Source: Bdellovibrionaceae bacterium UBA1609
GTDB taxonomy: Bacteria; Bdellovibrionota; Bdellovibrionia; Bdellovibrionales; UBA1609
Assembly: GCA_002321895.1 (NCBI GenBank)
Contig: DCMZ01000002.1
Location: 1-64,000, forward strand
Direction of reading: 5' to 3'
DNA: 64,000 bases
Shown here: positions 407 to 52,483 of the stretch, one piece after another
Layout: every line of letters starts with the position of its first letter
How positions within the stretch are numbered: position 1 is the stretch's first letter
Program-made: the position numbers and the translations under genes
The notes under the pieces: generated by a model
The model's database searches: none
Told to the model about the DNA's origin: nothing
What the model saw: only the letters and a program-made list of their open reading frames with translations

Positions 407-407
407 A

Positions 408-4671: not shown

Positions 4672-4770
4672 TAAAAATGTACATCTCTCGTAGATCCTAA
4701 ATCCATAAAAAATCTTCACATTGTTTTGAGGGTCCTGTGGCTATTCGGGACTTTAGTGATCAATTCAGGT

Positions 4771-5155: not shown

Positions 5156-5364
5156 CAATGTTAATGATGCGACTGTTTTACGGTCTGTATTTCTTGGGAA
5201 TGGCTGTTTTGGCCTATCATACTTTGTCATTGATGATCTTTCAGCCCAACTCTAGATCAATTAAGGAAGTTGGGATGAAGATTCTACTGATTCCAGTTTG
5301 GCCATTGGCTCTATTTAGCCAGGCTGGACGCAACACACTTATGAAAATTACGAGGAGGCTATAG
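5152..5364 (+). CDS. Small two-TM membrane protein (NfeD-like partner?) translationally coupled between the RHH and SPFH genes
   Basis: 70 aa with two hydrophobic helices (LFYGLYFLGMAVLAY; ILLIPVWPLALF). An AAGGAGG SD lies upstream. Overlaps both neighbours (GTGA and ATAGTGA junctions). Confidence 0.4.
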   Translation: MTMLMMRLFYGLYFLGMAVLAYHTLSLMIFQPNSRSIKEVGMKILLIPVWPLALFSQAGRNTLMKITRRL

Positions 5365-6146: not shown

Positions 6147-6184
6147 TTTGAAGACTCTTTGTTAGTCGTCGTTCCGTTACTAAT

Positions 6185-6224
6185 ACCTTGGCGGGCCCTT
6201 TCCCGGGGCTCGCCTTTTTTATTT
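6185..6224 (+). terminator. Imperfect GC hairpin plus T6, likely a bidirectional terminator between convergent genes
   Basis: ggcgggccctttcccggggctcgcc followed by ttttttatttcc. Confidence 0.45.
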
Positions 6225-12944: not shown

Positions 12945-12951
12945 CGCGGAA

Positions 12952-14289: not shown

Positions 14290-14498
14290 GGCTCTTGCTC
14301 GCTTTTTATATGTTGTGGGTAGGTTTGGTTGTGAGATATTAAACATGACTACGTACGTCAACTTCTCGCCGGGATAGTGCTAAATCTTCACGGTTTTGAA
14401 GCTTCCATTGGAATTATTTCGAAAGTCACAATTTAAAAAAAATTACATCACTTTATGGAAGCTGGATGTACTCCTTTACAGTTTAAGTAGAGACTAAT

Positions 14499-15629: not shown

Positions 15630-15634
15630 TGGGT

Positions 15635-17590
15635 TTAAAAATAGTTAAAGAGTTTCAAATTAACAGATTTATGGCCTTCGTTATTTTGGAAGCTAACTCC
15701 TAGGGACCAATTGGTTGTTATTGTACTTCTAAGCTCTGCTAAGCCAGATCGGTAAACCTCGCGTTGATCGCCCAAATAGAAGTAGTGTTTGTATTGGAGT
15801 ATTGATTTTGTATTTAAGCTCCAGTGATACAACAGTCCTACATCTGGCCCAACTCCCGCCAGAAAATCGGATCCGGGTAGATGGCGGCTCCATTTTAGTT
15901 CGGTAGTGATAAGTCCGTAGATCAAAAGATCTTCTTGAGAAGTGAGTGCGTAGGTTCTGCCTGAGGCCAGCTCTATACCGAATAGATCGCAAGCGGAAAG
16001 GCAGTTCTCGTCAATTCGCCTTTCATGGCCAAATATCATTTTCCAAGATTTGTTGGGTTGATAATAAGAGTAGGCAGGAAGGGCAATCACCTCAAGAGCG
16101 GCAAAGGAGTCTAAAATAAATTCGTTTTGCTCCTCCCAATAGGTCCCTTCGATATGAAAGAATCCTACTCCTGCATTTCGCATATAACCCACTTCACCAT
16201 CCAACACATCATGGAGTGCGAACCTCATGTCGAATCCCAGTCCAAAATGCCCGAGTGTGTCCGTGCGCCCGACCAAGCCCCAGCGAGCGGATTCATGGCC
16301 CCGATCCGGTTGAGCCTGTTCGGGCAAAGGGATCTGAAGGGATAGTGTTTCTAGAGGATTTCGAGCTCGAAGCTGCAATAGTTTAAACTTAGCCTTCAGG
16401 CTTGGACTTTCCTTTTCGTAGTAATCGTCGGGGTTGATGAGTTCAATAAAGTCCAATCCGGCATCGAGCATATCTCGTTGCTGAGACTCGGAGAATGTCG
16501 AAAGTGCAGAGGTATTCACTTTATTAGAGGCCAAATCTTTCACCCATTCCGCTTGGTCGGGGTTGAGTTTATCCAGCCGGGCAAAGACTTGTGTTCGTAT
16601 GGAAGGCCGGTAGTCGACCGCTTTTACTAACCCTGGTACTTTCGCAAGAGCTCTTACGGTATCACCAGGTATCATCCAAAACGGCACCTTATCCATGACT
16701 TGTATTCTTGGTACAGCGGCTTGCAAACCTCTTAAGACGTAATAGGCACAGTTTTCGGTAAGGAAATAATAGTCATAAGGAGAGTTTCCCAACTCCCAAA
16801 GTTGATCCATTAGATCATCCACCTCAGTTTGATTCAGGTCTAAGTGGTAGGTCCAAATATCACGAGCTTCATAATCGTTGTACTCTCTGACTTTAAAATA
16901 ATAAGGCACTGAACTGAATGTTCCAGGAAAGAATCCTGCCAGTCCTCCGACGGCATACCAAATGGGATTCACCCCATCGGGTATATTTGAAGCGTAGTTT
17001 ATACCGCGGTCGAGTAATTCTGTCTTTTTAGAGTGGTCATTCAGATTTTTATTGCTGGAAACTTTAATAAGAGTGTGTCCAAATGCGGAAGATGGCGAGT
17101 TCACGTTGTAAGAGGAAAAGGATATCCCGATGGATTTGGCATTATGCTTATCAATGTAGAGGTCATAGAGTTCACAGTTGGCTGGGCTTTCTGTAGGCGC
17201 AAACCCTTTTAAATTTCGTTTTAACCATTTGAAACGAAATGGAAATCGACACCGAGGATGTTGATCGACTTTATAGGAATTTTGATGGGCTTCGTTAAAT
17301 AGCTGAACAAGAGCCTGAAGTTCTTTTTTAGGATGAGTTCGGCCTTCCGGATGTGCGTAAAACTTTGGAGAGGTGGCTAGCCCCTTATATCCACCCCAGG
17401 TGGAGGGTTGATAATGCATAAGGAACAACCATTGTTCACTTTTAGCCAGTGATTCTATAGTGTCCGGCCTAGATTCAAGGGCAAAGGCATTCCAATTTAG
17501 CAGTAAAAAAAGAAGCCCCAGCAATGGCTGAGGCTTCTGTATGCGAAAACTCATGTAGAGAATTATTATCCTAAGTCTACATTTGTGCAA
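15635..17590 (-). CDS. Large secreted protein, tentatively DUF4105/Lnb-N-like at the N-terminus with a beta-rich C-terminal region
   Basis: 651 aa with a signal peptide (LLGLLFLLLNWNAFA). WLFLMHYQPSTWGGY...ELQALVQLF resembles the DUF4105 N-terminal motif (low certainty). Ends in an aromatic residue (LKLFNYF), as OM proteins do. Confidence 0.45.
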   Translation of the reverse strand: MHKCRLRIIILYMSFRIQKPQPLLGLLFLLLNWNAFALESRPDTIESLAKSEQWLFLMHYQPSTWGGYKGLATSPKFYAHPEGRTHPKKELQALVQLFNEAHQNSYKVDQHPRCRFPFRFKWLKRNLKGFAPTESPANCELYDLYIDKHNAKSIGISFSSYNVNSPSSAFGHTLIKVSSNKNLNDHSKKTELLDRGINYASNIPDGVNPIWYAVGGLAGFFPGTFSSVPYYFKVREYNDYEARDIWTYHLDLNQTEVDDLMDQLWELGNSPYDYYFLTENCAYYVLRGLQAAVPRIQVMDKVPFWMIPGDTVRALAKVPGLVKAVDYRPSIRTQVFARLDKLNPDQAEWVKDLASNKVNTSALSTFSESQQRDMLDAGLDFIELINPDDYYEKESPSLKAKFKLLQLRARNPLETLSLQIPLPEQAQPDRGHESARWGLVGRTDTLGHFGLGFDMRFALHDVLDGEVGYMRNAGVGFFHIEGTYWEEQNEFILDSFAALEVIALPAYSYYQPNKSWKMIFGHERRIDENCLSACDLFGIELASGRTYALTSQEDLLIYGLITTELKWSRHLPGSDFLAGVGPDVGLLYHWSLNTKSILQYKHYFYLGDQREVYRSGLAELRSTITTNWSLGVSFQNNEGHKSVNLKLFNYF

Positions 17591-18162
17591 GATTGAGAAA
17601 GTTCTTTGTCTCTAAGCAACACGTTCACAACGCTATCCGTAATTTGCATAGGCTGAACTCTTTCATTAGGAAAGATAGTGGAGAAGTTAGCTTTCATTGT
17701 GCGGCCAAAATGTTCAGAATTTTGGCAGCCCAAAAGCTGACTTAAAGTGGCAACGCTTTCGCCGCTTCCACGAGCCATATCAGAGGCTAATGTCACTTTG
17801 TTTGTTTTAACAAACTGATCTACATTCCAAGCCCATTCTTTGTGACCAGGATCTGTACAGTTTGAGGTTCCGAAAGTGATTCCAACGATTGTAGATTCGA
17901 TACCATAGATATTGTTAGTGGTAGCAGCAAATACTTGATTGCCGTCTTTACCCATAACAATAGAACCTAATCCACATCCAGCAAGACCATACTTTCTTTC
18001 GAAAGTAGCTTCTTTGTCCATCATCATTTCTTTTTTGTGTTTGTGGCCTTTATGACCTTTATGTCCTTTGTGACCTTTTTTTCCTTTAGCGTTCGCAGAA
18101 AGAGAAACAGCAAGCAATGCAGTCACTACAATTGAGAGTACTTTAACTAAATTCATTTTCAT
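17566..18162 (-). CDS. Periplasmic protein, paralogue B, with an N-terminal histidine-rich (KGHKGHKGHKGHKHKK) tract
   Basis: Signal peptide. Shares GLAGCGLGS...ARGSGES...C-x-N motifs with the upstream ORF. GGGGGA SD precedes the ATG pair at 18162/18156 (the ORF track uses a TTG at 18174). Confidence 0.6.
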   Translation of the reverse strand: MKMNLVKVLSIVVTALLAVSLSANAKGKKGHKGHKGHKGHKHKKEMMMDKEATFERKYGLAGCGLGSIVMGKDGNQVFAATTNNIYGIESTIVGITFGTSNCTDPGHKEWAWNVDQFVKTNKVTLASDMARGSGESVATLSQLLGCQNSEHFGRTMKANFSTIFPNERVQPMQITDSVVNVLLRDKELSQSCTNVDLG

Positions 18163-18174
18163 TTTATCCCCCAA

Positions 18175-18699
18175 TTACGAAAGTTCGTTACAGCCGATTT
18201 TGTTAGTAACAATGACTTCTTCTACTTTGCGGCTTGTTTCTTCAGTAGAACGTCCTTCTTCAAAAATATCGTTGAAATGAGTCTTTAAAGTGTCGGCCAA
18301 TACATTTGCATTTTCGCACTTATAGATTCCAGAAAGGTTAGTGATTGTTTCACCGCTACCACGGCTAACATCTTTCATAAAAGCAACATGGTTGATAGAG
18401 ATATAAACGGCAGCCATCTCTTGTGCGCTTTCAACACAGCCGGAAGTTCCAGATGTAACAGCAGAAGTTTGAGATGCTGATTTATTTGTAATGTGTTGGA
18501 AAATCTGTGGGATTTTACCGGGTTTGTTTTCGAAAATTTGTGTGCCTAGACCACAACCGGCCATACCGTAACCAAAACTGTCTTGTGCCATTGCAATGCT
18601 TCCTAGGGAAGCGATAGCGGCAACAAGTACAACATGTGCAATTGTCTTCATTCCATCCTCCTGAACGACTTTGTTAATTTGATTATTACATTCACTCAA
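18175..18699 (-). CDS. Periplasmic protein, paralogue A (same family as 17566..18162, no His tract)
   Basis: GMAGCGLGT, SRGSGETITNLSG and a C-terminal Cys are conserved between the two ORFs. Tandem duplication. Confidence 0.6.
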   Translation of the reverse strand: MSECNNQINKVVQEDGMKTIAHVVLVAAIASLGSIAMAQDSFGYGMAGCGLGTQIFENKPGKIPQIFQHITNKSASQTSAVTSGTSGCVESAQEMAAVYISINHVAFMKDVSRGSGETITNLSGIYKCENANVLADTLKTHFNDIFEEGRSTEETSRKVEEVIVTNKIGCNELS

Positions 18700-23041: not shown

Positions 23042-26041
23042 CTAATCCGAACTCAACTTTAGTTTTCTAACCACATGATTGGCACGATCGCCGATAAATA
23101 GGTCACCATTTTCATCGAAAAGTACGTCGCCAGGATAGTAGTGTGTGGCAGATGTTCCAGTTATGCCCTCTTGCTCAAGGCCATAGGGAGAGCCCGCTCG
23201 GCGAGTGGCTTCAAGGTTACCTGAAACTGTCGAAATTCTTCCATCGGAGAGATCTATACACCGTACGTTGTGATCCCAGGTGTTTGCAAAGCAAATATAA
23301 TCTTCATTTACATCCACACCAAGGGGACGGTAGCAGCGCGCACTGGTGGCAAAAATGCCTTCAGAAGGGGAGCCAGAGGTCCCACTATTACAAGCTATGG
23401 TTGAGACTGAATTGGCGTTTACAGTGAGGTTTCCAACCATTACCGGAGATCCTGTTCTATTCCAGTAGCGGACTTTAGAATTCCATGAATCTGTTATAAT
23501 TAAATTCCCGATACTGTCCACAGCTAAACCATGAGGGCGATTAAACTGCACGCTGCCCTCGGCGACATTATTATTGCCAGAGTTGCCAGATGATCCACAG
23601 GTTCCTAAAACAGAAGTGACATTTCCAGTGTTGTCCAACTGTTTGATGCAGTGGTTTTGTTGGTCGGCGATAAAGATAACATCATTGCCGCTGTCGTTGT
23701 AAACAGCCACATCGGTAGGGTAATTGAATTCATGGGAAAGAGCCGGTCCATCTGGGCCATCTCCCGGTCCATTTGTCGCTCCAAGTGGATCACCTGCCAC
23801 ATTGGAAATTCGATCACTCAGTATAAAAGTACCGAAATATGTTTTATTAGAAATGGTGCGGTTCCAAATGCGAAAGCTATGCCCTCGGGTATTTAGTTGA
23901 ATGAGACTACCGTCGGATAAAAGAGCGGCGCCGTTCATATAATTGTCACCACTATACTGAACGCGAGTGAAAGCGTTGGAGGGGACATCATTTTCAATTT
24001 CCGGGTTCCCATTCCCGCGACCCACAGCCGTTGAGATTTCTCCATAAGGCGTCATTTGTCTCACGCGGTAGTTGTTTTGATCCACAAAAAACAGGGTTCT
24101 AGATGAACTTTCATAGGCCAAGCCACCCAATTGATTAAAAAGATGATCGATAGAAGGTTTATCAACATCTCCTAAAAAGCCATAGCGGCTCGTACCGGAT
24201 CCTAAAATGTCATACATTTTAGCATCGCCAACATCAATGGAGCGAATACGGCGGTTATTGTAGTCGGCGATATAAAGCACGTCAGAATCGCTGACATCAG
24301 GAAAAATATTGTAGGGCTCGTTGAGCTGGGCAATATCGAGATCTACATTGGTGCCATTGTATCCGGAGCTCGTACCCGCTGCATTGAGGTAGCCAGCTTC
24401 ATTATTGGCAATAGTACGGGCGCCGATAGTAATGTCCGCTCCCGTATTATTGGCCAATGCAATTTTATCTCTGTCTCTAAAGGTGTAATAGATCCGATTG
24501 TTGATGTGATAGACCCCTTCTGGGTCACCAGTGTTTAGGGTTGTGGGTTTGCCGTTGGTTTGGTAACCCGTCGAACCCGTCCCAATAATGGTTCTTACAT
24601 TTCCAGCTCCTACAGAAACATCACCCCAAAAAGTAACTGTTGCACCGGTTGTATTCACATATCGAATCCGGTTATTGTCACTATGGGTTACGTAAATACC
24701 TGTAGCATCCACATGTAAACCCATGGGTCTTCGAGCGCCCGAGGTGAGTGCATCGGCATTTTCACCGGAAACATCATCTCCACCATCACCATAAACCGTG
24801 GTCGCTAAGTCAGTGGCAAGATCCCATTTTTTCACTCGGTTCTCTGAGCGGCAAGCTACATATAGGCTTCCACTATAGATGCGGATCGTGACTGGATTGT
24901 CACAATCGTGATTATAGGCGGTGTTGCCGTCAACATGTGAGGAGCCGAAACCCATACCGATAAACATATTGCCATTGGAATCGACATATTTGATGCGATG
25001 ACCATTATATTCACTTATATATAGGACACCTGTGGCATCGTTGTAAGCCACACTTCGGGGATTGTAGATGGCCGTTTCAAGGGCAGGGCCGTCCGAACCA
25101 GAGTTGGCTTCTCCAGTTCCAGCAACCACTTTAATAGTGTTGGCGGCAATGGTCTGTCCCACTCGGTTGACAGCACCGGCCGTTTTGTTCCAATACCAAA
25201 CTAAGTGATTTTCGTAATCAGCAATAAACATGTTGCCTAAAGCATCTTGAGTCATATCAATGGGTCGGATTCGCAAATCATACTCGGAGTCTAAGGGGTT
25301 TGTGTTGTCCCCCACGCTAGGGCTTCCGGCAATGGTGCAAATTTCACCCTGTTCCAACTCATTACAGGCCATGGGGAAGTGGTTCACTTCAGCGACCCAA
25401 GTCTCTTGAGTCGTGGCCGTTCCGTCGGAGACATTCACTTGAATATTTATCTGTCCCACAAGTGCATCGGCACCCGTTAGAGTGGCGGTGCTACCAGATC
25501 CTGTTAGATAAGCACTACTAGCTCCATTGATGAGCCATTCATAAGTTAAACTATCACTATTTGGATCCGTTGCAGTCACGGCTATCGAGATACTGGATCC
25601 CACAGAGACTTTTGGAGTGCCGGTTGTAACCTTTGTTACAACGGGAGGTCCGTTGACTCGAACATCCCAAGTGTGCTCGTCAGTAGAGACTCCATCATAA
25701 GCTGAAACTGTGAGTGTATGGTCACCAATATTAGTTAAGTCTCCCGTGATTGAATAGTTGGTACTACTTCCTTGTTGCACGCTGGTTCCATCAATCTCCC
25801 AAGTTAAAACTATTCCTCGTCCCAGAGGAGCTTCCGCGGTCACAAAAAACTGCTGAGTTTGGGATTGTTCGATAGTCACCGAACCGGCATCTGGAACCAC
25901 TTGAGTGATCGTAGTCTGCTCAATTTCGGAAACATCCGAACTATTGAGTGGATTAAAGTCATCACTCCCAGAGCCACAGCCTAGGAAGAACACAAATGAA
26001 ACTGAAATTGTCCAAAAATTCTTATTCATAAAAACAACCAA
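23042..26041 (-). CDS. NHL-repeat (six-bladed beta-propeller) lipoprotein with N-terminal Ig-like domains
   Basis: 999 aa. Lipobox FFLGCGSGS. Many NHL-type blades, e.g. MFIADYENHLVWYW, LYISEYNGHRIKYVD, LYIADYNNRRIRSID, IFIADQQNHCIKQLD, LFIGDRANHVVRKL. Confidence 0.8.
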   Translation of the reverse strand: MVVFMNKNFWTISVSFVFFLGCGSGSDDFNPLNSSDVSEIEQTTITQVVPDAGSVTIEQSQTQQFFVTAEAPLGRGIVLTWEIDGTSVQQGSSTNYSITGDLTNIGDHTLTVSAYDGVSTDEHTWDVRVNGPPVVTKVTTGTPKVSVGSSISIAVTATDPNSDSLTYEWLINGASSAYLTGSGSTATLTGADALVGQINIQVNVSDGTATTQETWVAEVNHFPMACNELEQGEICTIAGSPSVGDNTNPLDSEYDLRIRPIDMTQDALGNMFIADYENHLVWYWNKTAGAVNRVGQTIAANTIKVVAGTGEANSGSDGPALETAIYNPRSVAYNDATGVLYISEYNGHRIKYVDSNGNMFIGMGFGSSHVDGNTAYNHDCDNPVTIRIYSGSLYVACRSENRVKKWDLATDLATTVYGDGGDDVSGENADALTSGARRPMGLHVDATGIYVTHSDNNRIRYVNTTGATVTFWGDVSVGAGNVRTIIGTGSTGYQTNGKPTTLNTGDPEGVYHINNRIYYTFRDRDKIALANNTGADITIGARTIANNEAGYLNAAGTSSGYNGTNVDLDIAQLNEPYNIFPDVSDSDVLYIADYNNRRIRSIDVGDAKMYDILGSGTSRYGFLGDVDKPSIDHLFNQLGGLAYESSSRTLFFVDQNNYRVRQMTPYGEISTAVGRGNGNPEIENDVPSNAFTRVQYSGDNYMNGAALLSDGSLIQLNTRGHSFRIWNRTISNKTYFGTFILSDRISNVAGDPLGATNGPGDGPDGPALSHEFNYPTDVAVYNDSGNDVIFIADQQNHCIKQLDNTGNVTSVLGTCGSSGNSGNNNVAEGSVQFNRPHGLAVDSIGNLIITDSWNSKVRYWNRTGSPVMVGNLTVNANSVSTIACNSGTSGSPSEGIFATSARCYRPLGVDVNEDYICFANTWDHNVRCIDLSDGRISTVSGNLEATRRAGSPYGLEQEGITGTSATHYYPGDVLFDENGDLFIGDRANHVVRKLKLSSD

Positions 26042-26341
26042 CGTTACAACTTTGTTTACTAGTCCTTTATCGGTGCAACTAAGGGCGAGTTTTAGTGGGA
26101 TCGTTTCAGTTTGATTCTAACTAGACCATTTATTATTAATTTTTCATAAAATTCCAACGGAACCCATAAAGTTCGGCTCCCATGTATCAAAAGAATACAC
26201 TCAGTAAAGTTGTGAAATTTGATTCGGTCCTAGATTTGATCTGATAGCTAAAACCTCCGTCTAGTTTTCCAGTAAAATCAAAGGATTAACAGGTTTTCTT
26301 CCGAAATGTTCATTGACGATATTTTTTAGGAGTGGGCGGCA

Positions 26342-26953
26342 ATGTCATTATGCAAAATAAAAATTACCCTATCGATTCTGTCATTAGTTGTTTTGGGCTG
26401 TGCCTCATCGGGTGTTGAAGTGCAAACCACTCCAGAGCCTGGAGATGTTTATATGTACAGTTCCAATGGAGAAAAGAAGAATCTTGGACCGGCTCCGGTT
26501 ACCATTCCAGTGAAAGACTTAAAAGCTATTGATGGAGATTTAATACATTTAGGTGTCGAAAAAGAGGGTTTCGTTAAAGAACAGCTCTACATTAACAAAG
26601 CCAATTTCGGCGTGAATGCGAGCATTACTGTAAAGATGACTCCGTTGGCTAATTGGAACAAGGTTTATCAGGATGACCAGGCCAATAAATACTTGGCTGA
26701 AGTGGCTCGACTGGCAGCAGAAATTCAAAGTGCAACGGTGAAAAGAGAACTTGGTCGTGCGGAACAGTTAGCAAAGACCATGGTGGATCAATTTCCAAAA
26801 CTTGAAGTGGCTTGGAACTTATTGGGGAATATCTATTATTTGCAGAAGCGCGCGAGTGATGCACTCAATGCTTATAACAAAGCTGTTGCCCTGAATCCAT
26901 CTAGTGTGGAAGCAAAAAATATGATTAACAAACTTCGTGGAATTAATTTTTAA
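26342..26953 (+). CDS. TPR-containing lipoprotein, first gene of the motAB cluster
   Basis: Lipobox VVLGCASS. C-terminal TPR-like helices (AWNLLGNIYYLQKRASDALNAYNKAVALNPSSVEA). 13-nt gap to motA. Confidence 0.55.
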   Translation: MSLCKIKITLSILSLVVLGCASSGVEVQTTPEPGDVYMYSSNGEKKNLGPAPVTIPVKDLKAIDGDLIHLGVEKEGFVKEQLYINKANFGVNASITVKMTPLANWNKVYQDDQANKYLAEVARLAAEIQSATVKRELGRAEQLAKTMVDQFPKLEVAWNLLGNIYYLQKRASDALNAYNKAVALNPSSVEAKNMINKLRGINF

Positions 26954-26966
26954 AGGGGTCTAAAAA

Positions 26967-27776
26967 ATGTCACATTTATTTGGTCTCATAATTGCGGGAA
27001 TGCTTTTACGGTCCGCCATGTGGTTATTGGACATGGATTCCAGTTACTATGTGGAAGAAGTCGCATTGATTATTGTTTTTGGTGGAACAATAAGTGCTGC
27101 GATCATTACCTATTCCGTACCGGAACTGGTGAAAATGATTCGAGCTCTTTTCCGAATTGGTAAAAAAATGCCGGAAAGTAGAACGGCAACGGTTCATCAA
27201 ATAATAGATTTGGCGAAAAGGGCCAAGGAGTCTCCTCAAGCCCTATATGATGCAATGGATGATTCCAACTATAATCCTTATTTTAGAGATGGTTTAGAAC
27301 TCATTGTTTCGGGGTTCAGCCGAGGCGATTTAGAGACCGTAATGTCAGAAAGACTTTTTCGGGATCGGGAGCGTGATGAATCCTATGGATTGTTGTTAAG
27401 AACAATATCAAAGTATCCTCCCGCTTTTGGTTTGGTGGGTACAGTGCTCGGTCTGGTTTCGGTGATGAGAGCGGTTTCAACCGGAGCTGATGCCGCAGAG
27501 ATTGGTCTACAGATGGCCCTCGCTCTTGTGGCCACGTTCTATGGGTTGATTCTTACGAATTTCGTTTTGGTTCCAATGGCAGAGAATTTGATAAATAAGG
27601 CGGCTAAAAATATGACTCATAGGGAGTTAATGTTGGAAGGCCTACTGCTAATTAATGACAAACGATCTCCTGTCTATGTGCAAGAAGTGATGAACTCCTA
27701 CTTGTCACCGACTCAGAGAAAAGATCATGTGGGTATACGGGGAGGTGCTGCTGGAAATAGAGCTTCGGCAGCATAG
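26967..27776 (+). CDS. motA: MotA/TolQ/ExbB-family proton channel (flagellar stator MotA-like)
   Basis: 269 aa, 4 TM. YPPAFGLVGTVLGLVSVM and ALALVATFYGLILTNFV are MotA plug/TM3-4 signatures. Confidence 0.85.
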   Translation: MSHLFGLIIAGMLLRSAMWLLDMDSSYYVEEVALIIVFGGTISAAIITYSVPELVKMIRALFRIGKKMPESRTATVHQIIDLAKRAKESPQALYDAMDDSNYNPYFRDGLELIVSGFSRGDLETVMSERLFRDRERDESYGLLLRTISKYPPAFGLVGTVLGLVSVMRAVSTGADAAEIGLQMALALVATFYGLILTNFVLVPMAENLINKAAKNMTHRELMLEGLLLINDKRSPVYVQEVMNSYLSPTQRKDHVGIRGGAAGNRASAA

Positions 27777-27788
27777 AGGTTTATAGAG

Positions 27789-28724
27789 ATGCAAGAAAAT
27801 ACGAGTTCAAAATTTAGAAACTCTAAAAAGGATCGACTCCATGTGGGGCCGGTTGAAGGGGATCATAACAGTAACTGGGCGATCAGTTATGGGGATATGA
27901 TCACTTTGCTTTTAGCTTTCTTTGTTTTGTTCTTTAGCATCGATAAATCCAATAAAGATCTTCAGATTCTTGAGCGCAAAATTGATGAGGAATATAAAGA
28001 AGAAAAAAATGTACCCAAAGTAGCTGATGCTCAATGGGGCGCAGTTAAAAGCAATATAAAAGCAGACGGAAGAAAATCCAGTACGGGTCATATTGACCAA
28101 TCCCCAAGCCAAGAGGGACTCACTTCAAAATCTCTCAAAGTGACAGATGGGCGTTCACCTTCGTCGGCCATTCATGAAATAGTTGAGGACTTACCCGAAG
28201 TTTCTACTGAAATTCAGGGAAATAAAATGATCATTCAGTTTCCTGAAGTTTCTTTCTTCGACTCAGCTCAATTCACATTGACTAGCGAAGGCGATAGAGC
28301 TCTACAGAGATTCGCAAAAATCTTTAAAACAGTTAGAGGCCGGTTAAGATTAGTCGTCCGCGGGTATACGGACAATAGGCCCGTAAAATCGGGGAAAGTA
28401 TATAAAGATAACTTGGAATTATCCGCACTACGAGGAATTGCGGCCTTAAGATCCCTGAATTCAAGTGGAGTGCCGTATCATCTCATGCGAATCGGTGGTT
28501 ATGGAGAGTCAGACAAGAGTCAAGACGTGTCCGACAGGGAATTACAAAAGTATGATCGGAAAGTGGTGCTTGTAGTAGAGCCATTGGATGCCACAGAAAG
28601 AGGGTTCGAAGAAGAAACAGCTTCAAGAATTCCTTCGAGTCAATCTGAGGGTAAAGATAATAGCGATATTGAAGACATAGGAAATAAGGAAACGGAAAGT
28701 AAGGTCAAGGAGAATCAAAAATGA
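27789..28724 (+). CDS. motB: MotB-like stator protein with a C-terminal OmpA-family peptidoglycan-binding domain
   Basis: WAISYGDMITLLLAFFVLFFSI (MotB TM/plug) plus VRGYTDNRPV...NLELSALRGIAAL (OmpA-like). Confidence 0.85.
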   Translation: MQENTSSKFRNSKKDRLHVGPVEGDHNSNWAISYGDMITLLLAFFVLFFSIDKSNKDLQILERKIDEEYKEEKNVPKVADAQWGAVKSNIKADGRKSSTGHIDQSPSQEGLTSKSLKVTDGRSPSSAIHEIVEDLPEVSTEIQGNKMIIQFPEVSFFDSAQFTLTSEGDRALQRFAKIFKTVRGRLRLVVRGYTDNRPVKSGKVYKDNLELSALRGIAALRSLNSSGVPYHLMRIGGYGESDKSQDVSDRELQKYDRKVVLVVEPLDATERGFEEETASRIPSSQSEGKDNSDIEDIGNKETESKVKENQK

Positions 28725-30529
28725 AAAATACAGTGAAGATACACGGACTCTTCATTGCTATTCTTTTGGCAATTTCGACAATCGTTGTAATGCCAACAGC
28801 GGAAGCATCAAGAGTTCCAGAGATCGAACAGTTTTACCTGTCGAAAACCAGAGAGTTTTTGCAGCTCAGGTTTCCCAACGAACCTTTCTCTGTTTCAGTA
28901 ATAGTGGATACAGGCCGTGCTGAACCCACTCGAAAAGATTTTAATCGTCAATCCAACTCGAATAGTGTGACCAATTTACCTTATTTAGATATTGAAGAGG
29001 AAGAACTGGAAATATGGGATAGAACGGATATTCCATTGAACAACTTGATTGCTCAATTGCGTCGAGTTGAATTGCAAATTCAAATTGATTCATCAATGTC
29101 GGACGAAGATATCGTTGCATTACAAGACTCATTAGCTACTCATTTAAAGCTTGATCCAGGATCTGATGCTGTAAAAATTTATAAAATGGATTGGACTAAG
29201 CTTGAAAGATATAGAACTGTTGGCTGGGTGACGGGACTTCTTGCCTTTGCCATGGTTCTTGTTTTTGGTGTGTTCTATTTACTTGCAAAGCTCAGTGTTA
29301 GAAGTCTCGTGAAAGGTTTAGGTACACCTATTCGCGAGTTGGGCCAAAGTACGAAGAAGTTTGCTGATGATGCCTTATCTATTGCGACGGAAATGTCCAC
29401 TCCAGCAACTGCATCCGTACAAAAAATAAATGGTGCTAGTGTTGCTGGCAATGACGACGGAGATGAGCTGACTCATGGATCTAATTTACTGGAGATTCGT
29501 GAGAGCGCTTTAGAGCTTATCGATAGGAATAAGGAGTTCTTTGCTAATCCTGATGCCAATTTTATGGACTTTTTGAATAAGAGGGGTCAGAGAGATCCTG
29601 AAACAGTAGGATCAATTCTCGCTGAGCTACATAAAGATAGTCTAAAGCATCTCTTTGAAAACGGAAGTGGCGATTGGTGGTTTGTTGCCATTTCTCATCC
29701 GGGTCCGTTGTCTCCAAAATCCATATCAGTTCTAAGTGAAATTGATAAAATGCGATTAAGGATGACCTTTAATGAATCCAGCCGGGTGGCTCAAGTTCAA
29801 CAAGAATTCAAAGAAGAAGGTTTAATATTTTCTCGAATTCCTGTGACGAACTTAGCAGATATTTTTGGAGATCTATCTATTGAAAAGGCACTAGGAATTT
29901 TTGAGGTGATGCCAAGAACAAAAGCATTAGCCGTGGCAAAAGAAATGTATCCTGGGCAGTGGGCGGCCTTTCTTTTAGATCAAAAAGATAATCACGATCC
30001 TATTGATCGGGCTCTTTTAAGTCAGTTTATGGTGGAAGCTCAGAAGCGATTTCCGAAGCGAAAAGACGCAGCCATTCAGAAGTTTTTTGAAGAGATGGAT
30101 CTGTCTCTGTATTTAGATACGGCTAATACTAGGGATGAAAGAGATTTCTATGTGGCTCTTCCAAAAGATTCTAATATTCTTAATACAAGAACTCCCTTCT
30201 TTAGCGTGTTCGATGCCTCTAAAGGCATCTTGAAAACACTAGGAACGGCATTGTCTCCTCAAGACTGGGCTCTTGTTCTGACTCATGCGGAACATCATGA
30301 ACGGGATAAGTTTCTTAATGCCATACCGGAAAGACTTTCTTTTCGGATTCATGAAGAGGGTCGTGGCATTAAGATCACTCCACAGGATGAACCCCATATA
30401 CGTTATTTAAAAAGATCATTAGTAGCAGCTTATATAGAAGAAACCAACAAGTCCAATGCGGATGTGCAGGATCTAATAAATGAAATTGATGCAACTCAGA
30501 GTATTGCCAATGAGGAGCCTGCGGCTTAG
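28721..30529 (+). CDS. Uncharacterised 602-aa two-TM membrane protein (periplasmic loop and a large cytoplasmic helical domain) translationally coupled to motB
   Basis: ATGA overlap with motB. TM1 at residues 9-25 and TM2 WVTGLLAFAMVLVFGVFYLLA. Cytoplasmic region has helical repeats (LADIFGDLSIEKALGIFEVMPRTKALAVAKEM) faintly reminiscent of MgtE-N/FliG-type repeats. Confidence 0.6.
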   Translation: MKNTVKIHGLFIAILLAISTIVVMPTAEASRVPEIEQFYLSKTREFLQLRFPNEPFSVSVIVDTGRAEPTRKDFNRQSNSNSVTNLPYLDIEEEELEIWDRTDIPLNNLIAQLRRVELQIQIDSSMSDEDIVALQDSLATHLKLDPGSDAVKIYKMDWTKLERYRTVGWVTGLLAFAMVLVFGVFYLLAKLSVRSLVKGLGTPIRELGQSTKKFADDALSIATEMSTPATASVQKINGASVAGNDDGDELTHGSNLLEIRESALELIDRNKEFFANPDANFMDFLNKRGQRDPETVGSILAELHKDSLKHLFENGSGDWWFVAISHPGPLSPKSISVLSEIDKMRLRMTFNESSRVAQVQQEFKEEGLIFSRIPVTNLADIFGDLSIEKALGIFEVMPRTKALAVAKEMYPGQWAAFLLDQKDNHDPIDRALLSQFMVEAQKRFPKRKDAAIQKFFEEMDLSLYLDTANTRDERDFYVALPKDSNILNTRTPFFSVFDASKGILKTLGTALSPQDWALVLTHAEHHERDKFLNAIPERLSFRIHEEGRGIKITPQDEPHIRYLKRSLVAAYIEETNKSNADVQDLINEIDATQSIANEEPAA

Positions 30530-31103
30530 CAGGGTACTTTTTGGTGCCATAACAGTTTTAATTTATTTTTGTAGCCTACCCGTGGCTGCAGAAACTAAGT
30601 ACCCCTATCAGGTGTTCCTACAGGGTGGTACATATAACTTTGAAGTGACTACGGAGACCAACGACTCATCAGATACATTGTCTGGTTTTGGGGCTTATTC
30701 CATTGGTGTTGGAGCCACTATTTTTCAAAAATTTCTAGTCGTTGCAGGATATAGTTTAATTCTGAGTGACGGTTTCACCGGTAGCACAGCTACAGGCTTA
30801 GATTTTGGGATGCGATATTATCATTGGACACGGCCATCCATGGAAGTTTCTGAAGTAGAGAATCTAGAGATGTCAGTTTACAACCTCTATAACCCATATG
30901 TGGGATTAGCGGTTCGCTCTCGGGATTTTCTATCTACCCTTACATCCACCTATCTTGGCTTGGGTTTTGTGGCAGGGTTAGATTACAGGTATAAAAAGGA
31001 CTACTATTTAAATGCCGAGTTCAGATATGAAGAGTTGGAGAGCCCGGCCTCAAAAACGCTAGTTCAAATGAATATTTTATTTGGAATTGGAGTGTATTTC
31101 TAA
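30510..31103 (+). CDS. Outer-membrane beta-barrel protein (OmpA/OmpW-like small barrel)
   Basis: Signal peptide (LFGAITVLIYFCSLPVAA); amphipathic beta-strands; C-terminal ILFGIGVYF aromatic beta-signal. Confidence 0.55.
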   Translation: MRSLRLSRVLFGAITVLIYFCSLPVAAETKYPYQVFLQGGTYNFEVTTETNDSSDTLSGFGAYSIGVGATIFQKFLVVAGYSLILSDGFTGSTATGLDFGMRYYHWTRPSMEVSEVENLEMSVYNLYNPYVGLAVRSRDFLSTLTSTYLGLGFVAGLDYRYKKDYYLNAEFRYEELESPASKTLVQMNILFGIGVYF

Positions 31104-31278
31104 TAGAGAATCGCCCGAAAGCCGCTCAGGTACAATGAAACAGGCGATGAGTGACAATTTTTGTGTAAGTGCTCGAAAACTCTTCAACATCGATTTTAGA
31201 ATTTCAGTATTACGGAAGAATCGTCTTATATTGGTTTTAAGGGATTGTTTTAGAAAATTAATTTTAGGGAGAAGAGAG

Positions 31279-31710
31279 ATGGGAACGGGACAAATGATAT
31301 TAGCCAAAAAATTAGGTTATGTTCTAATAATGGTCCTCGCTGTGAGTTTCGCAATGGAGAGCAGCGCTATCAGTGGAAAGTCCATTAGAAGCAAGATATC
31401 TAAACAAAGATCCGATTTTAGAGATTGTTATGATAAAAATTTAAAGCGATTTCCTAGAATGAATGGTGAGACAGAGTTGTCATGGACAATCAATGATAAG
31501 GGTGAAGCTAAGGGTATTAAAATTACCCGTAGAATGAATCGAAGTGTAGACCGTTGCTTGGCAAAAGTTCTTTCAGAAATTCATTTTCCAAAGGCGCCCG
31601 AGGGTCAAGAGATAACGGTCAGCTATCCGTTTGTGTTTGAACAGGCTCCATTTGATAATGATCGAAAACCGTCTTCTTATAAGAAACCTAGAAAAACGGT
31701 AAAGAAATAG
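31279..31710 (+). CDS. Small secreted protein consisting of an AgmX/PglI C-terminal-type domain
   Basis: Start at MGTGQM preceded by GGGAGAAGAGAG. DCYDKNLKRFPRMNGETELSWTINDKGEAKGIKITRRMNRSVDRCLAKVLSEIHFPKAPEGQEITVSYPFVF matches my recollection of the CY...G.v.v.f.I...G.v...C......FP.P.....v.YPF.F pattern of that domain. Confidence 0.5.
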   Translation: MGTGQMILAKKLGYVLIMVLAVSFAMESSAISGKSIRSKISKQRSDFRDCYDKNLKRFPRMNGETELSWTINDKGEAKGIKITRRMNRSVDRCLAKVLSEIHFPKAPEGQEITVSYPFVFEQAPFDNDRKPSSYKKPRKTVKK

Positions 31711-31718
31711 TTTTAGAT

Positions 31719-32462
31719 TTATTTTGTCGCCAAGGTAGATTGCCGTTTACCGGAATATCCAGGTTTATCTAGAATTTGAAATTCGTTTGTCCGTAATGCT
31801 CTTTTCAGCGTACCCGTAGCTGCATAGGTAGATAATACACAAGATGAAGCGGCACATTTACCAATGAGGTCAGTTAAAAACTCTTCCGACCAAATGGTGG
31901 AATTCATTTTATTGGAATACATATCGTAGAAGATCACAGTTCTCTCCTGAGATTTTTCCAATGCTTCCGTTATAGAGTCATGTAACATAAAACTTTTAGT
32001 TTCATATAGGGCTTTGATTTGGTCATAAATTCTGGTGGATTCAACTCCATAGTGGTCAGCAGACATTTGAAGAATTTTTTGATAAACCTCAGTAAGGTCG
32101 GATGGTTTCTCAGACAGCCAGTTTATGAATTGATTTTTCAGATAGGGTATTACTTCATAGGAGTGAAGCGATGAGATGGGCCTATTTTTCTGTAAGGAAT
32201 GGGCTACGGAGAGAATTTCGTTGTAACCTATTCCTAATCCTGCAGAGAGAATTTGAATGCTATCCGTTTTGGAAAAAGCCAGCTCTAGAGATTCTTGATA
32301 GATATAGAGGCTTTCAGAAAAGGCCCCTGCCGAGTGGTGCATGACCTCATCCAGTTGGTCAGTAGCAAAAAATTGCAAACTGGGACTGCCATCTCCAGTC
32401 AGAACCAACTTAAAGTCATTTGGCAGTTTAATATGTGGGAAGGTTTGCATTTTTACCATTGA
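31719..32462 (-). CDS. MnmC N-terminal-domain-like (DUF752) SAM-dependent methyltransferase, standalone
   Basis: DEVMHHSAGAFSESLYIYQESLEL...IQILSAGLGIGYNEI and the C-terminal STYAATGTLKRALRTNEFQILDKPGYSGKRQST resemble the tRNA mnm5U methyltransferase domain. Start placed at MVKMQT; the ORF track extends to 32777, overlapping the divergent gene. Confidence 0.5.
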   Translation of the reverse strand, partial: SMVKMQTFPHIKLPNDFKLVLTGDGSPSLQFFATDQLDEVMHHSAGAFSESLYIYQESLELAFSKTDSIQILSAGLGIGYNEILSVAHSLQKNRPISSLHSYEVIPYLKNQFINWLSEKPSDLTEVYQKILQMSADHYGVESTRIYDQIKALYETKSFMLHDSITEALEKSQERTVIFYDMYSNKMNSTIWSEEFLTDLIGKCAASSCVLSTYAATGTLKRALRTNEFQILDKPGYSGKRQSTLATK

Positions 32463-32480
32463 TTGCTTAGATAGTAAGCC

Positions 32481-33506
32481 ATGGACACAATGGCAACAAA
32501 AAACCAGACAGATTGGAATGGGATTCCCTATTATCCGATCAGTCGGTATTACAAAGAGTTCTTTGGGGAAAAAGTCCTCAAGTTGCCAGTAAGTGTTCCT
32601 GGAACCTGTCCCAATAGGGAAGGTTTGAATGGGATGCAGGTGTGTAATTTCTGCGACGAGTGGGGTTCTGCAGCCTATCCAGAGAGTCGTGACCAAGAGT
32701 TGTTTGATCAGATTCGGCATAACAAAACTCAAGTTTTGCGAAAAGGCAAAGCAAAGCAATTTCTCGTTTACTTTCAATCTTACACTTTCACTTACTCTCG
32801 TGTGGCTCGTTTAGAAAAATATATGGAAGCATGCTTGGACTTAGGCGATATCTGTGGCTTTGTTATTGGTACTCGTCCCGACTGTATTTCAGATGCCGTT
32901 ATTGATTTGTGGAATCGTTTTGCAGAAAAGGTTCCGGTGTTCATCGAATTGGGAGTTCAGTCTTTCGATGATTCCCAGCTGAATTGGATGAGTCGTGGGC
33001 ATGATGCTCAAAGGTCGATAAAGGCACTTCTCCGGCTACAGAAAAAGTGCCCCACACTGAATGTGGGGATACATTTAATGTTTGGGATGCCCGGGGAGAC
33101 GGATCATCAAATTAGAGAAACGGCCGAGTTGGTGAACCAGCTACCCATTCATAATGTTAAACTTCACAATTTACATGTATTAAAAAATACGCCGCTAGAA
33201 CAAGATTTTAGAGCAGGTCTCTTTACACCGATTGATTTTGAAAAGTATTGCCAGCGAGTGGGTATATTTTTACAACACCTGAAACCGTCTCTTCCCATTC
33301 ATCGATTGGCAGCCAATTCATCTAGGCGCGACGAGCTTGTGAGTCCTGAGTGGACGGGTGATAAAATGCGTACCTATCAACAAATGCTGGATTATTTAAT
33401 TCAAAACGATATTTATCAAGGTCAGCTTTATAAAGAGGATGAGGAGCAGCTTAAAACTTCACCTACGCATCTTCCGTTGGAATTTTTCAGTTATCAATCA
33501 CAGTAA
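32481..33506 (+). CDS. TIGR01212/YhcC-like radical SAM protein
   Basis: GTCPNREGLNGMQVCNFCDE cysteine cluster near the N-terminus, and a length and pattern typical of the YhcC family. Confidence 0.7.
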   Translation: MDTMATKNQTDWNGIPYYPISRYYKEFFGEKVLKLPVSVPGTCPNREGLNGMQVCNFCDEWGSAAYPESRDQELFDQIRHNKTQVLRKGKAKQFLVYFQSYTFTYSRVARLEKYMEACLDLGDICGFVIGTRPDCISDAVIDLWNRFAEKVPVFIELGVQSFDDSQLNWMSRGHDAQRSIKALLRLQKKCPTLNVGIHLMFGMPGETDHQIRETAELVNQLPIHNVKLHNLHVLKNTPLEQDFRAGLFTPIDFEKYCQRVGIFLQHLKPSLPIHRLAANSSRRDELVSPEWTGDKMRTYQQMLDYLIQNDIYQGQLYKEDEEQLKTSPTHLPLEFFSYQSQ

Positions 33507-52421: not shown

Positions 52422-52483
52422 CGGCAGAGTCATTTTGGGAATTGGGTTGTATAGGAGCCCCGATTCTATTAAAATTTTCTATT

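Follow-up and report, generated by a model that had tools for sequence, protein, structure and literature searches.

A flagellar-type MotA/MotB stator linked to a FliF/FliG-like membrane protein in a conserved gene cluster suggests an undescribed rotary envelope machine in Bdellovibrionota

In DNA whose named sources are all uncultured Bdellovibrionota, the phylum to which the predator Bdellovibrio belongs, the genes of MotA, MotB and a FliF/FliG-like membrane protein travel with those of a TPR lipoprotein and an outer membrane (OM) β-barrel and, in most loci, also with that of a giant β-propeller lipoprotein. This conserved cluster suggests an undescribed stand-alone rotary machine of the envelope, and the locus on balance probably encodes, as judged from sequences and predicted structures, a self-contained non-flagellar rotor–stator motor across the cell envelope. 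The cluster is described here from a stretch of 64,000 nucleotides (the window; positions 1 to 64,000 of contig DCMZ01000002.1, assembly GCA_002321895.1) of Bdellovibrionaceae bacterium UBA1609. A preliminary description of this DNA had proposed an undescribed stator-containing envelope module, a proposal which is borne out, and no paper describing the module was found in the literature.

The operon opens on the plus strand with a TPR lipoprotein of 203 aa (26342..26953; lipobox LGC, a PEGA-like β-domain and then TPR), followed by MotA (269 aa; 26967..27776), MotB (311 aa; 27789..28724), the FliF/FliG-like fusion protein (602 aa; 28721..30529) and a small OM β-barrel of about 197 aa which has a signal peptide and ends in an aromatic residue (30510..31103). 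The 13 nt between the stop of the TPR gene (26953) and the motA ATG (26967) contain a GGGG Shine-Dalgarno-like motif, the start of the 602-aa frame overlaps the motB stop by ATGA (28721-28724), and the barrel gene starts before the FliF/G-like gene has ended (its product would have 207 aa with the alternative start at 30480). After a 175-nt gap comes a gene (ATG 31279; 31279..31710, plus strand) for a 143-aa protein with an AgmX/PglI C-terminal domain (NF033768, 5e-19). A 999-aa lipoprotein with lipobox FLGC, an N-terminal Ig-like region and NHL β-propeller repeats is encoded divergently on the minus strand (23042..26041). The six plus-strand frames, the 13-nt gap and the ATGA overlap were all confirmed as the preliminary description had located them, and its domain calls (TPR lipoprotein, MotA, MotB with OmpA, OM barrel, AgmX/PglI) hold in profile searches, that of the barrel weakly.

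In the Pfam profile search MotA matched MotA_ExbB (PF01618; 9.3e-21), and among NCBIfam families it matched those of flagellar MotA/PomA/MotP at 1e-36 to 3e-31 and TolQ at 2e-7, which tells against the TolQ part of its earlier designation as a MotA/TolQ-type channel. In the PDB it aligned nearly end-to-end (residues 29-259) with MotA of C. sporogenes (6ysf/8ucs; E 8.5e-33), and also with PomA (4e-22) and the MotA proteins of Paenibacillus and B. subtilis. Equivalents of E. coli P173 and P222 are invariant among orthologs; the residues matching R90/E98 of E. coli fall in an ambiguous alignment and show no obvious conservation. A TARA Oceans gene is 100% identical to this MotA over 94% of its length. 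MotB carries a transmembrane (TM) helix with the channel Asp (SYGDM), a plug, a long linker and an OmpA-like peptidoglycan-binding domain (MotB_plug 1.5e-11 and OmpA 7.7e-10 in the profile search); it matches the MotB proteins of B. subtilis and C. sporogenes and PomB in the PDB, and its NWAISYGDM segment is kept in all orthologs. The OmpA-type MotB had been taken for a misfit, but it is normal for flagellar stators and no anomaly. Both subunits have the features of the FIT group (PMC12505986): MotA shows MotA/PomA rather than TolQ/ExbB affinity, the A subunits of the group being defined by four TM helices with an enlarged torque-generating domain that lies in the cytoplasm between TM2 and TM3; MotB has the channel Asp, the plug with linker and the OmpA-like domain of the B subunits. 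The best NCBIfam family scores are 125.9 bits for MotA (equivalog cut-off 237) and 89.2 for MotB (equivalog cut-off 283); since both lie under the curated cut-offs, the pair represents a divergent lineage and is no equivalog of any named stator. The channel Asp, plug, conserved prolines and OmpA-like peptidoglycan anchor thus mark MotA/MotB, at the sequence level, as a flagellar-type ion-driven stator.

A MotAB-related 5:2 motor working outside the flagellum is also found in Zorya (ZorAB), and PADLOC returned only generic ZorB-type matches for MotB and left the other six proteins without a match. Membership in Zorya was rejected, as ZorA finds no match, ZorC and ZorD are missing, MotA has no long ZorA tail and the neighbourhood consists of envelope proteins, not nucleases or helicases.

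The partner of the stator is the 602-aa protein, which proved to be bitopic with a large helical cytoplasmic part, as had been described. After a signal peptide or TM1 (residues 1-29) it has a periplasmic region of about 140 residues with a single ring-building motif (RBM) unit of α-β-[insert]-β-α-β topology (residues about 30-157; 28808..29191) which resembles the RBM3/S-ring part of FliF; RBM1 and RBM2, the SctJ-homology region of FliF proper with its length of about 550 aa, are missing. As in FliF, the RBM3 and β-collar (S-ring) fold lies ahead of TM2; the helix at this position (residues about 167-189; 29219..29287; VGWVTGLLAFAMVLVFGVFYLLA) sits within a long model helix (158-223) and joins the periplasmic RBM to a cytoplasmic FliG-like region (residues 255-597; 29483..30511). 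The latter comprises three armadillo-type domains (N-, M- and C-like), including the six-helix torque domain of FliG_C, and forms the C-terminal 350 residues of a membrane protein, unlike the soluble FliG of ~330 aa, to which the C-terminal peptide of FliF is bound non-covalently. When the predicted structure was searched with Foldseek, the top 13 matches were all FliG, most at probability 1.0. The top structural match 8z4d is the S-ring of an engineered FliF-FliG fusion. The monomer models have pLDDT values of 77 and 73, a moderate confidence, and the RBM insert is disordered in the monomer. On the strength of models and alignments, the protein has the domain order of the C-terminal half of FliF fused to a complete FliG, with N/M/C-like domains. 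This make-up, that is, a rotor-type partner for the stator, had been overlooked in the preliminary description.

With FliG and FliF the protein shares no more than about 10-17% identity, and the homology emerges from the family rather than from single sequences. Pfam FliG_C (PF01706) matches the protein of the window below threshold (E 0.058; 14.1 bits against a gathering cut-off of 23.3) and 19 of 25 relatives at E <= 0.1, the best at 1.8e-6, while a diverse family profile searched against the PDB reached FliG_C at E 5e-5, its top 6 matches all being FliG. An hhalign comparison with one FliG sequence from E. coli yielded a probability of just 2.9%, and local profile alignment placed the FliG M domain unreliably (EHPQR comparison). 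The FliG_C matches indicate that the protein is homologous to FliG_C yet lies outside the curated family boundary. It had been expected not to be a known, named flagellar accessory protein, and this stands, as it falls into none of the families of Pfam, NCBIfam and PADLOC and all members are annotated as 'hypothetical'.

In the torque-helix-like segment (residues 537-548; 30329..30364, plus strand) three independent alignments concur in placing R538 on E. coli FliG R281 and E545/E546 on D288/D289. Position 538 is K/R in 159 of 160 family members and position 545, the D288 equivalent, is E in 101 of them (63%); positions 548 and 551 are K/R in 116/160 and D/E in 117/160, respectively. The positions aligned with K264 and R297 of FliG show no conservation (for the canonical MotA–FliG charge pairs see PMC12505986). 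The M-like domain contains an invariant [FY]-P-G-x-W motif (P411, G412, W414).

The module is not confined to the window. A five-gene core (lipoprotein, MotA, MotB, FliF/G-like protein and OM barrel) stays syntenic in all loci that have sufficient flanking DNA and persists at protein identities of 21-35%; it is carried by MAGs of Bdellovibrionia and Oligoflexia and by marine contigs from TARA, and the flanks are unrelated. The motB stop overlaps the FliF/G-like gene by ATGA in 13 of 17 loci and by 11 nt in 2 more, and both gene order and ATGA overlap are kept across 21-70% identity. As far as sequence comparison can tell, conservation of the core is well beyond chance. It is highly improbable that the locus is left over from a flagellar one, decaying and without function. 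Its closest relative (L001) has motA and motB split across frames, as such a remnant would have it, but frameshifts also affect unrelated neighbouring genes there, which indicates an assembly error. Moreover, the family of the 602-aa protein counts 222 representatives at 50% identity; among the 150 listed, about 130 have 540-630 aa and nearly all of these match the profile end to end, the about 20 shorter ones matching only part of it. The listed full-length members share its architecture, and invariant residues occur in both the periplasmic and the cytoplasmic domains.

The envelope components are conserved to different degrees. The TPR lipoprotein (TPR_1 2.2e-8, TPR_2 3.4e-7) has orthologs with 24-62% identity in every locus with upstream DNA, all full-length ones with the lipobox, and the ortholog in L016 has a weak PEGA match; it is a candidate periplasmic scaffold for the stator or the ring. 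The barrel, with weak Opacity (6.6e-6) and OMP_b-brl (2e-4) matches and no sequence relative in the PDB, has orthologs of 23-56% identity directly downstream in all sequence-tested loci, with conserved signal peptides and, in most, β-barrel-type C-termini. The NHL lipoprotein (Pfam NHL 4e-20, TEN_NHL 1.3e-9; in the PDB only generic NHL propellers) adjoins the core in 14 other loci (L002, L005-L007, L009-L017 and a JGI contig); divergent from the operon in the window, it is colinear at the operon 3' end in distant relatives, and its lipobox and a C-terminal motif, N-H-[IV]-[IV]-R-K-V-K-L-S-P, are largely conserved. It is a conserved sixth module member, a candidate for the output, an adhesin or an OM-side component. 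In the Oligoflexus locus no NHL propeller lipoprotein occurs within 8 kb of the module, and a PilZ gene stands directly 3' of it.

Searches of related loci by tblastn and blastp found the AgmX/PglI gene, besides the window, only in the closest relative, so that this gene is, by its distribution, lineage-specific and outside the conserved module. The six-gene composition given in the preliminary description needs revision on this point and for its omission of the divergent NHL lipoprotein; among the genes that follow motB, those of the 602-aa protein and the barrel share the conservation of motAB, as had been supposed, and the AgmX/PglI gene does not. The resemblance to Agl/Glt or Tol/Ton systems had leaned largely on this same gene. 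Membership in the Agl-Glt machinery was ruled out by the flagellar-type MotA and by the score of the AgmX/PglI protein, 59 bits against a GltG cut-off of 650.

A related proposal is that MotAB energises the bitopic 602-aa protein through intramembrane contacts, as ExbBD acts on TonB and AglRQS on GltG/J, and in this way powers OM proteins that serve gliding, uptake or the integrity of the envelope, with the FliG-like domain as a mere cytoplasmic scaffold. With its TPR lipoprotein, small OM barrel, peptidoglycan-binding B subunit and bitopic inner membrane protein, the parts list does loosely parallel Glt and Tol-Pal, the Agl-Glt system of Myxococcus and Tol-Pal/TonB likewise combining an inner-membrane 5:2-type ion motor with TPR proteins, OM barrels and lipoproteins so that energy passes across the envelope; the gene for the GltG C-terminal-like AgmX/PglI protein follows in the window and its closest relative, and the gliding motor of Bdellovibrionota has not been identified (PMC13104615). 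We nevertheless regard such a transducer as improbable. The A subunit matches flagellar MotA/PomA at 1e-36 and TolQ/ExbB at 2e-7 and weaker, and the plug and OmpA domain of MotB are flagellar-specific and absent from B subunits of the Tol/Exb/Agl type (PMC12505986), the motors of those systems being TolQR/ExbBD-type. Their transducers (TonB, TolA, GltG) span the periplasm, whereas the 602-aa protein has a short RBM, no extended arm of the TonB/TolA type, a FliG-like part on the cytoplasmic side and its conserved charges on the equivalent of the cytoplasmic torque helix; the AgmX gene, as noted, lacks co-conservation with the module.

A close likeness is to the flagellar motor's core of MotA5B2 stator, FliG torque ring and FliF MS-ring, with which the module shares the stator features, the FliG N/M/C-like folds, the R281 and D288 equivalents, the RBM3/S-ring-like domain and a topology that runs from a periplasmic ring motif through a TM helix to a cytoplasmic FliG-type domain. 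It differs in having FliF-like and FliG-like parts in one polypeptide with a single RBM and in lacking P/L rings. Missing too are a type III export gate, a rod, a hook, a filament and the switch of FliM/FliN, and without these the module is no flagellum; what it has instead are a TPR lipoprotein, an OM barrel and a giant β-propeller lipoprotein.

It could still serve an ordinary flagellum, either as alternative stators with a FliG-like docking, clutch or storage protein by which MotAB units are held or regulated or by providing the highly divergent fused MS-ring/C-ring protein of the lineage. Cultured Bdellovibrio are flagellated and have several motAB pairs, and PilZ proteins, one of which is encoded directly after the module in Oligoflexus, brake flagellar motors in other bacteria. 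The flagellum of Bdellovibrio is polar and sheathed (reviewed in PMC13104615), and periplasmic TPR proteins are stator-associated parts of flagellar motors, in which they contact stator or E-ring components (PMC13023049). The flagellar type of MotA and MotB and the FliF/FliG-like nature of their partner agree with such a role, which we consider unlikely on several grounds. The 64-kb window contains no flagellar gene, nor do the 8-10 kb around the module in over 14 related loci, and fliM and fliN are found near none. FliF RBM1 and RBM2, which surround the export gate, are absent from the 602-aa protein with its one RBM. The OM barrel is always linked and the giant β-propeller lipoprotein usually, neither being a known flagellar part, and a decoy or clutch would have no need of a dedicated, translationally coupled stator.

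Covalent linkage of FliF to FliG has precedents. Classical Salmonella deletion-fusion mutants of this kind still assemble MS-rings. Engineered Vibrio FliF-FliG fusions, which assemble MS-rings and share linkage and domain order with the 602-aa protein, are laboratory constructs with full-length FliF (three RBMs) in a complete flagellum (PMC11481574), whereas the 602-aa protein is natural, much shorter and encoded in a non-flagellar operon. A natural single polypeptide with RBM-type domains, a TM segment and a cytoplasmic FliG-like domain is known from Chlamydiaceae, in an organism not thought to be flagellated (Bergeron 2016, PMC4768692). That protein, of about 330 aa, has an RBM2-like domain, a second RBM and a region like the FliG middle domain only, without the torque-generating C domain; it was proposed to work with the injectisome, and the flagellar genes given for its host are only those of FliF, FliL and FlhA, with no MotAB reported (PMC4768692). 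The 602-aa protein differs from it by the RBM3/S-ring-like domain, the full FliG N/M/C set and translational coupling to MotB.

In the non-flagellar motor favoured here, ion flow (pmf) through peptidoglycan-anchored MotA5B2 would turn the MotA pentamer, whose cytoplasmic face would push the FliG_C-like torque helix in the manner of the flagellum. By way of its ring-building motif the FliF/G-like protein may assemble in the inner membrane into a ring, as FliF does with about 33-34 subunits, or otherwise at least into an arc or a track, and this assembly would thereby be rotated or displaced. The S-ring-like periplasmic face of the protein might hand the movement on to the TPR lipoprotein, the barrel and the β-propeller lipoprotein. 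Most probably the motor would serve to move or energise an OM or surface component, for instance an adhesin for gliding or prey contact, or OM transport or remodelling. The module encodes no axle or other obvious mechanical output. A regulated ion channel or sensor, in which the armadillo region, as an MgtE N-domain-like module, gates or senses MotAB ion flow for envelope homeostasis or signalling with no mechanical output, is even less probable than a transducer.

A stationary ion-driven motor that rotates and sets in motion OM-associated assemblies of lipoproteins and large adhesins made of β-propellers or repeats also describes the T9SS/gliding motor of Bacteroidota (GldLM, GldKN ring, SprB), an analogy that would be functional only. 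GldLM and MotAB have no homology (PMC13104615), GldM itself crosses the periplasm and a FliG-like rotor is missing.

In a 2025 survey of MotAB, flagellar-type stators formed one clade tied to flagella, and the plug, OmpA domain and torque interface were described as flagellum-specific innovations (Puente-Lelievre et al., PMC12505986). A conserved operon in which a stator of this kind is coupled to a FliF/FliG-like fusion, away from other flagellar genes, would provide the first candidate for this torque couple at work outside the flagellum; it would offer a simpler system for MotA–FliG turning (three inner-membrane genes, possibly a single-protein ring) and bears on what a precursor of the flagellar motor without type III secretion could have been. 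With the adhesins and force transmission of Bdellovibrionota gliding likewise unidentified (PMC13104615), the module and its variable giant propeller lipoproteins are a concrete candidate for an envelope or surface motor of this phylum. A bolder version, possible if rather doubtful, is a free-standing minimal rotary engine in which a FliF/FliG-like ring spun by MotAB, with no secretion apparatus, axle or filament, drives the giant OM β-propeller lipoproteins and could act as a surface-motility or prey-contact motor of Bdellovibrionota. If true, it would represent either a sister of the pre-flagellar rotor–stator pair that has survived or a derivative that has been stripped down, and the MotAB–FliG torque couple would be able to work outside a flagellum.

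The propeller proteins themselves vary among loci. In locus L020 RCC1/WD40-type propellers stand in place of the NHL lipoprotein and the protein at the FliF/G position is barely recognisable, and in one variant locus propeller proteins have a faint match to SprB.

The preliminary description listed six plus-strand genes, and all six ORFs were found as described, together with their domains, which profile searches confirmed (TPR lipoprotein, MotA_ExbB, MotB_plug and OmpA, a weak outer membrane (OM) β-barrel, and an AgmX/PglI C-terminal domain at 5e-19 in a 143-aa protein). The gene of the TPR lipoprotein (26342–26953) is separated from motA (26967–27776) by the 13-nt gap already reported, which contains a GGGG Shine-Dalgarno-like motif. 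Likewise, motB (27789–28724) and the 602-aa ORF (28721–30529) do overlap by ATGA at 28721–28724, and the end of the 602-aa gene is in turn overlapped by the OM-barrel gene (30510–31103). Of 17 loci, 13 have the ATGA overlap and 2 others overlap by 11 nt, a gene layout that indicates a conserved, predicted translational coupling of motB to the gene that follows. Scans of 25900–31900 for promoter and terminator consensus sequences returned sites no more numerous than in shuffled sequence, so the limits of the operon are drawn from spacing and synteny.

Every gene of the window was compared with related loci by tblastn and blastp. The order lipoprotein–MotA–MotB–602-aa protein–OM barrel was syntenic in all loci with enough DNA, and thus the 602-aa and OM-barrel genes are co-conserved with motAB, a point which the preliminary description had left to gene-neighbourhood comparison. 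Its sixth member, the AgmX/PglI gene (31279–31710, plus strand; ATG at 31279, after a 175-nt gap), was detected only in the closest relative (L001) and looks like an independent, lineage-specific neighbour. A promoter-like site precedes this gene (31173–31202) and its AgmX/PglI C-terminal domain is TonB_C-like. The gene of a 999-aa NHL-repeat lipoprotein (23042–26041, minus strand), divergent and upstream in the window, adjoins the core in 14 other loci, on either side. Distant members share 21–35% identity across all six proteins, and four of the distant loci (L017, the TARA Oceans locus L015, a JGI contig and, in a somewhat varied form, L016) carry all six genes in line and closely packed; in a module retained in this form, a decaying remnant is scarcely credible. 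The flanks consist of housekeeping genes which differ from lineage to lineage.

Relatives of the 602-aa protein were collected by a word-indexed search of 5.8 billion proteins, which gave 25, and by an exhaustive profile search covering 1.84 billion representatives, which gave 222 cluster representatives (157 at E <= 1e-30). Among the 150 of these 222 that were listed, about 130 are 540–630 aa long, nearly all of them matching end to end, and about 20 are shorter and were matched by the profile in part only. The 12 genome loci recovered all come from uncultured Bdellovibrionales or Bdellovibrionia MAGs and the remaining named family members only from Oligoflexales, Bdellovibrionia and Oligoflexus MAGs, all named sources being uncultured genomes; carriers include GCA_964469265.1, GCA_035638955.1, JAWKNX01, DKGG01 and TARA scaffolds. 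Every named member is annotated as 'hypothetical protein', none of the Pfam, NCBIfam and PADLOC models covers the 602-aa protein, and full-text literature searches found no description of the family or its operon. The window itself probably belongs to a marine Bdellovibrionota genome, because a TARA Oceans gene matches its MotA (26967–27776) with 100% identity over 94% of the MotA length, and an ENA metagenome protein has the same sequence as its 602-aa protein. The closest relative (L001, 671–2463 and 5622–7337) has motA, motB and two unrelated neighbour genes each split over two frames, probably through a fault of assembly or sequencing rather than through pseudogenisation.

The stator pair is of the flagellar type. 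MotA matches the MotA_ExbB profile at 9e-21 and the flagellar MotA/PomA/MotP families at 1e-36 to 3e-31, the value for TolQ being only 2e-7. The hallmarks of flagellar-type units (an expanded cytoplasmic domain and four transmembrane (TM) helices in the A subunit, a plug, linker and OmpA-like peptidoglycan-binding domain in the B subunit; PMC12505986) are present at the sequence level in the MotA/MotB pair of the module. Both proteins score under all curated equivalog cut-offs, so the stator is assigned to a divergent lineage and, since MotA relatives with as little as 34–39% identity still lie within the same module, it seems to form a sizeable lineage by itself. The likeness to Agl/Glt or Tol/Ton machines drawn in the preliminary description was not sustained: membership of these systems was rejected on the MotA family scores and on the occurrence of the AgmX/PglI gene in one relative only, and the reading of the module as a Tol/Ton/Glt-type transducer is considered improbable. 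Zorya and other defence systems were also rejected, the PADLOC signal being a generic likeness of MotB to ZorB, with no ZorA, ZorC or ZorD.

Alignment of the 602-aa family defines a signal peptide or first TM segment, a periplasmic domain of ~140 residues, one TM helix (about residues 167–189), a disordered linker and, in the cytoplasm, a helical region of ~350 residues. The AlphaFold model has a pLDDT of 77 overall and 85–93 in the cytoplasmic part, for which the top 13 Foldseek hits in the PDB are all FliG, most of them near full-length (about 320 columns). Modelled alone (pLDDT 73), the periplasmic domain has an α-β-[insert]-β-α-β topology, the insert spanning residues 64–113, and also matches other ring-building-motif (RBM) proteins (PrgK, SpoIIIAF/AG/AH, EscJ, PrgH, YscD), these being mixed among the matches with unrelated small α/β folds (CzrB, OsmC, MamM). 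At the sequence level, 19 of 25 family members match Pfam FliG_C (best 1.8e-6), and the six best matches of a 77-sequence family profile among 177,635 PDB sequences are FliG C-terminal domains (E 5e-5). MgtE_N is matched by 13 of the 25; an MgtE-like sensor or regulated channel is judged improbable. An hhalign comparison of the 25-sequence family alignment with one E. coli FliG sequence, about 97% identical to Salmonella FliG and used for residue correspondence only, gave 2.9% probability; local HMM alignment did not help to place the FliG N and M domains or the EHPQR motif, the C-domain profile aligning weakly to all three FliG repeats. Taken with the agreeing sequence evidence (FliG_C, PDB profile), the fold matches give a predicted order in which the C-terminal half of FliF (RBM3/S-ring and TM2) is covalently joined to a whole FliG.

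The protein ends in Ala-Ala (last two codons, 30521–30526), an end that is nearly universal in the family (22 of 25 close relatives), the final Ala being kept in 90% of 160 members; it could act as a degron or as a recognition signal at the C-terminus. The C-termini of the module MotA (27768–27773 in the window) also tend toward small residues (AA, AS, VA, SA).

In three independent alignments, R538 of the window protein corresponds to E. coli FliG R281 and E545/E546 to D288/D289, residues which are the partners of MotA E98 and R90 (PMC12505986). Across an alignment of 160 family members, K or R is found at position 538 in 159 and E at position 545, the D288 equivalent, in 101; two positions with no FliG equivalent given are also charged, 548 (K or R, 116/160) and 551 (D or E, 117/160). 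In the stator, the prolines matching MotA P173 and P222 are invariant and the channel Asp of MotB is conserved. Alignment with E. coli MotA at R90, E98 and E150 is ambiguous, the loop being longer in E. coli, and P173 and P222 alone are trusted.

To the identities of the parts, their genetic coupling and their co-inheritance, all established computationally, a rotor–stator reading may be added, which is held with slightly better than even confidence. Ion flow through peptidoglycan-anchored MotA5B2 units would rotate the MotA pentamer, as in established 5:2 motor models, and MotA would engage the FliG_C-like domain (residues 449–597) at its charged, conserved helix. Through its RBM, the FliF/G-like protein would form an inner-membrane ring, and this ring would turn; MS-rings are assembled by engineered FliF-FliG fusions (PMC11481574). 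The S-ring-like face may then hand the movement to the TPR lipoprotein, the OM barrel and the propeller lipoprotein. Any one output (gliding, adhesin transport, prey contact or OM remodelling) is proposed with far less confidence than the rotor–stator reading itself. With a flagellar-type stator and a FliG-like partner, the module could also be a part or regulator of an ordinary flagellum; no flagellar genes were seen near any related locus inspected nor anywhere in the 64-kb window, and this alternative is thought unlikely. The closest natural precedent of the rotor–stator reading is the FliF-FliG fusion of Chlamydiaceae (PMC4768692), which differs in its length (about 330 aa), its RBM2-type domains and a FliG part restricted to a middle-domain-like region, and for which no stator is reported (PMC4768692). 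What would be new in this reading is that a MotAB–FliG rotor–stator couple belongs to a trans-envelope module of non-flagellar kind.

The remaining components are envelope proteins. The lipoprotein encoded by the first gene combines a PEGA-like β-domain with TPR repeats; periplasmic TPR proteins such as MotC, MotK, PflA and FlcB interact with stator or E-ring parts of flagellar motors (PMC13023049), and by analogy a role of the TPR lipoprotein as a scaffold is plausible. The small protein encoded downstream of the FliF/G-like gene carries a signal peptide and ends in a β-barrel-type C-terminus, and sequence search found no PDB relative for it. The 999-aa lipoprotein contains NHL propellers and belongs to a family that varies greatly in length (998–1959 aa), its sequence matches in the PDB being generic NHL propellers only. 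A TARA contig (L020) has in its place two giant β-propeller proteins of the RCC1/WD40 type (64–7157), one with a faint SprB match; the 597-aa protein at the FliF/G position of this contig (9541–11334) has no HMM match and a marginal hhalign match confined to the periplasmic RBM part (E 6e-5, probability 65%). The Oligoflexus locus has no propeller gene within 8 kb. By comparison of loci, the five-gene core is constant and its propeller partner exchangeable, and for this reason a role of the partner as cargo, adhesin or output would fit. Two NHL-lipoprotein paralogs flank the core of L007, one per side (4418–7495 and 12894–15809). Most relatives of the NHL lipoprotein carry the C-terminal motif N-H-[IV]-[IV]-R-K-V-K-L-S-P (23042–23080, minus strand, in the window), the two most distant (L015 and L016) ending differently.

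PilZ-domain genes occur directly after the module in the Oligoflexus MAG (L019, 12086–12478), 4 kb downstream of it in L016 (a GYF-PilZ gene, 15779–16567) and about 26 kb away in the window (57028–57555), which may point to control of the motor by c-di-GMP, comparable to the action of YcgR on flagella. The PilZ gene of the window lies in a stretch of signalling and pilus-related genes (52442–61113) which also includes an FHA-GGDEF diguanylate cyclase (52442–53407), an ECF sigma factor (53733–54383), an OprF-like protein (55463–56047), a PIN-PhoH protein (57735–59057) and a PilT/T2SSE-type ATPase (59998–61113). Elsewhere in the window, two tandem DUF3015 genes beside a 651-aa Lnb_N/DUF7840/DUF7843 protein (15635–18699, minus strand) make up a small cluster of uncharacterised envelope-type proteins, and sizeable ORFs of up to 855 aa are without any Pfam match (408–3124, 6219–8786 and 12952–14361 on the minus strand; 14499–15629 and 48905–50113 on the plus strand). 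The longest ORFs of a Methyltransf_30 gene (31719–32777, minus strand) and a radical-SAM gene (32481–33506, plus strand) lie on opposite strands and share about 300 nt; since the methyltransferase domain is confined to the C-terminal 84 residues, the true start of the former probably lies further downstream.
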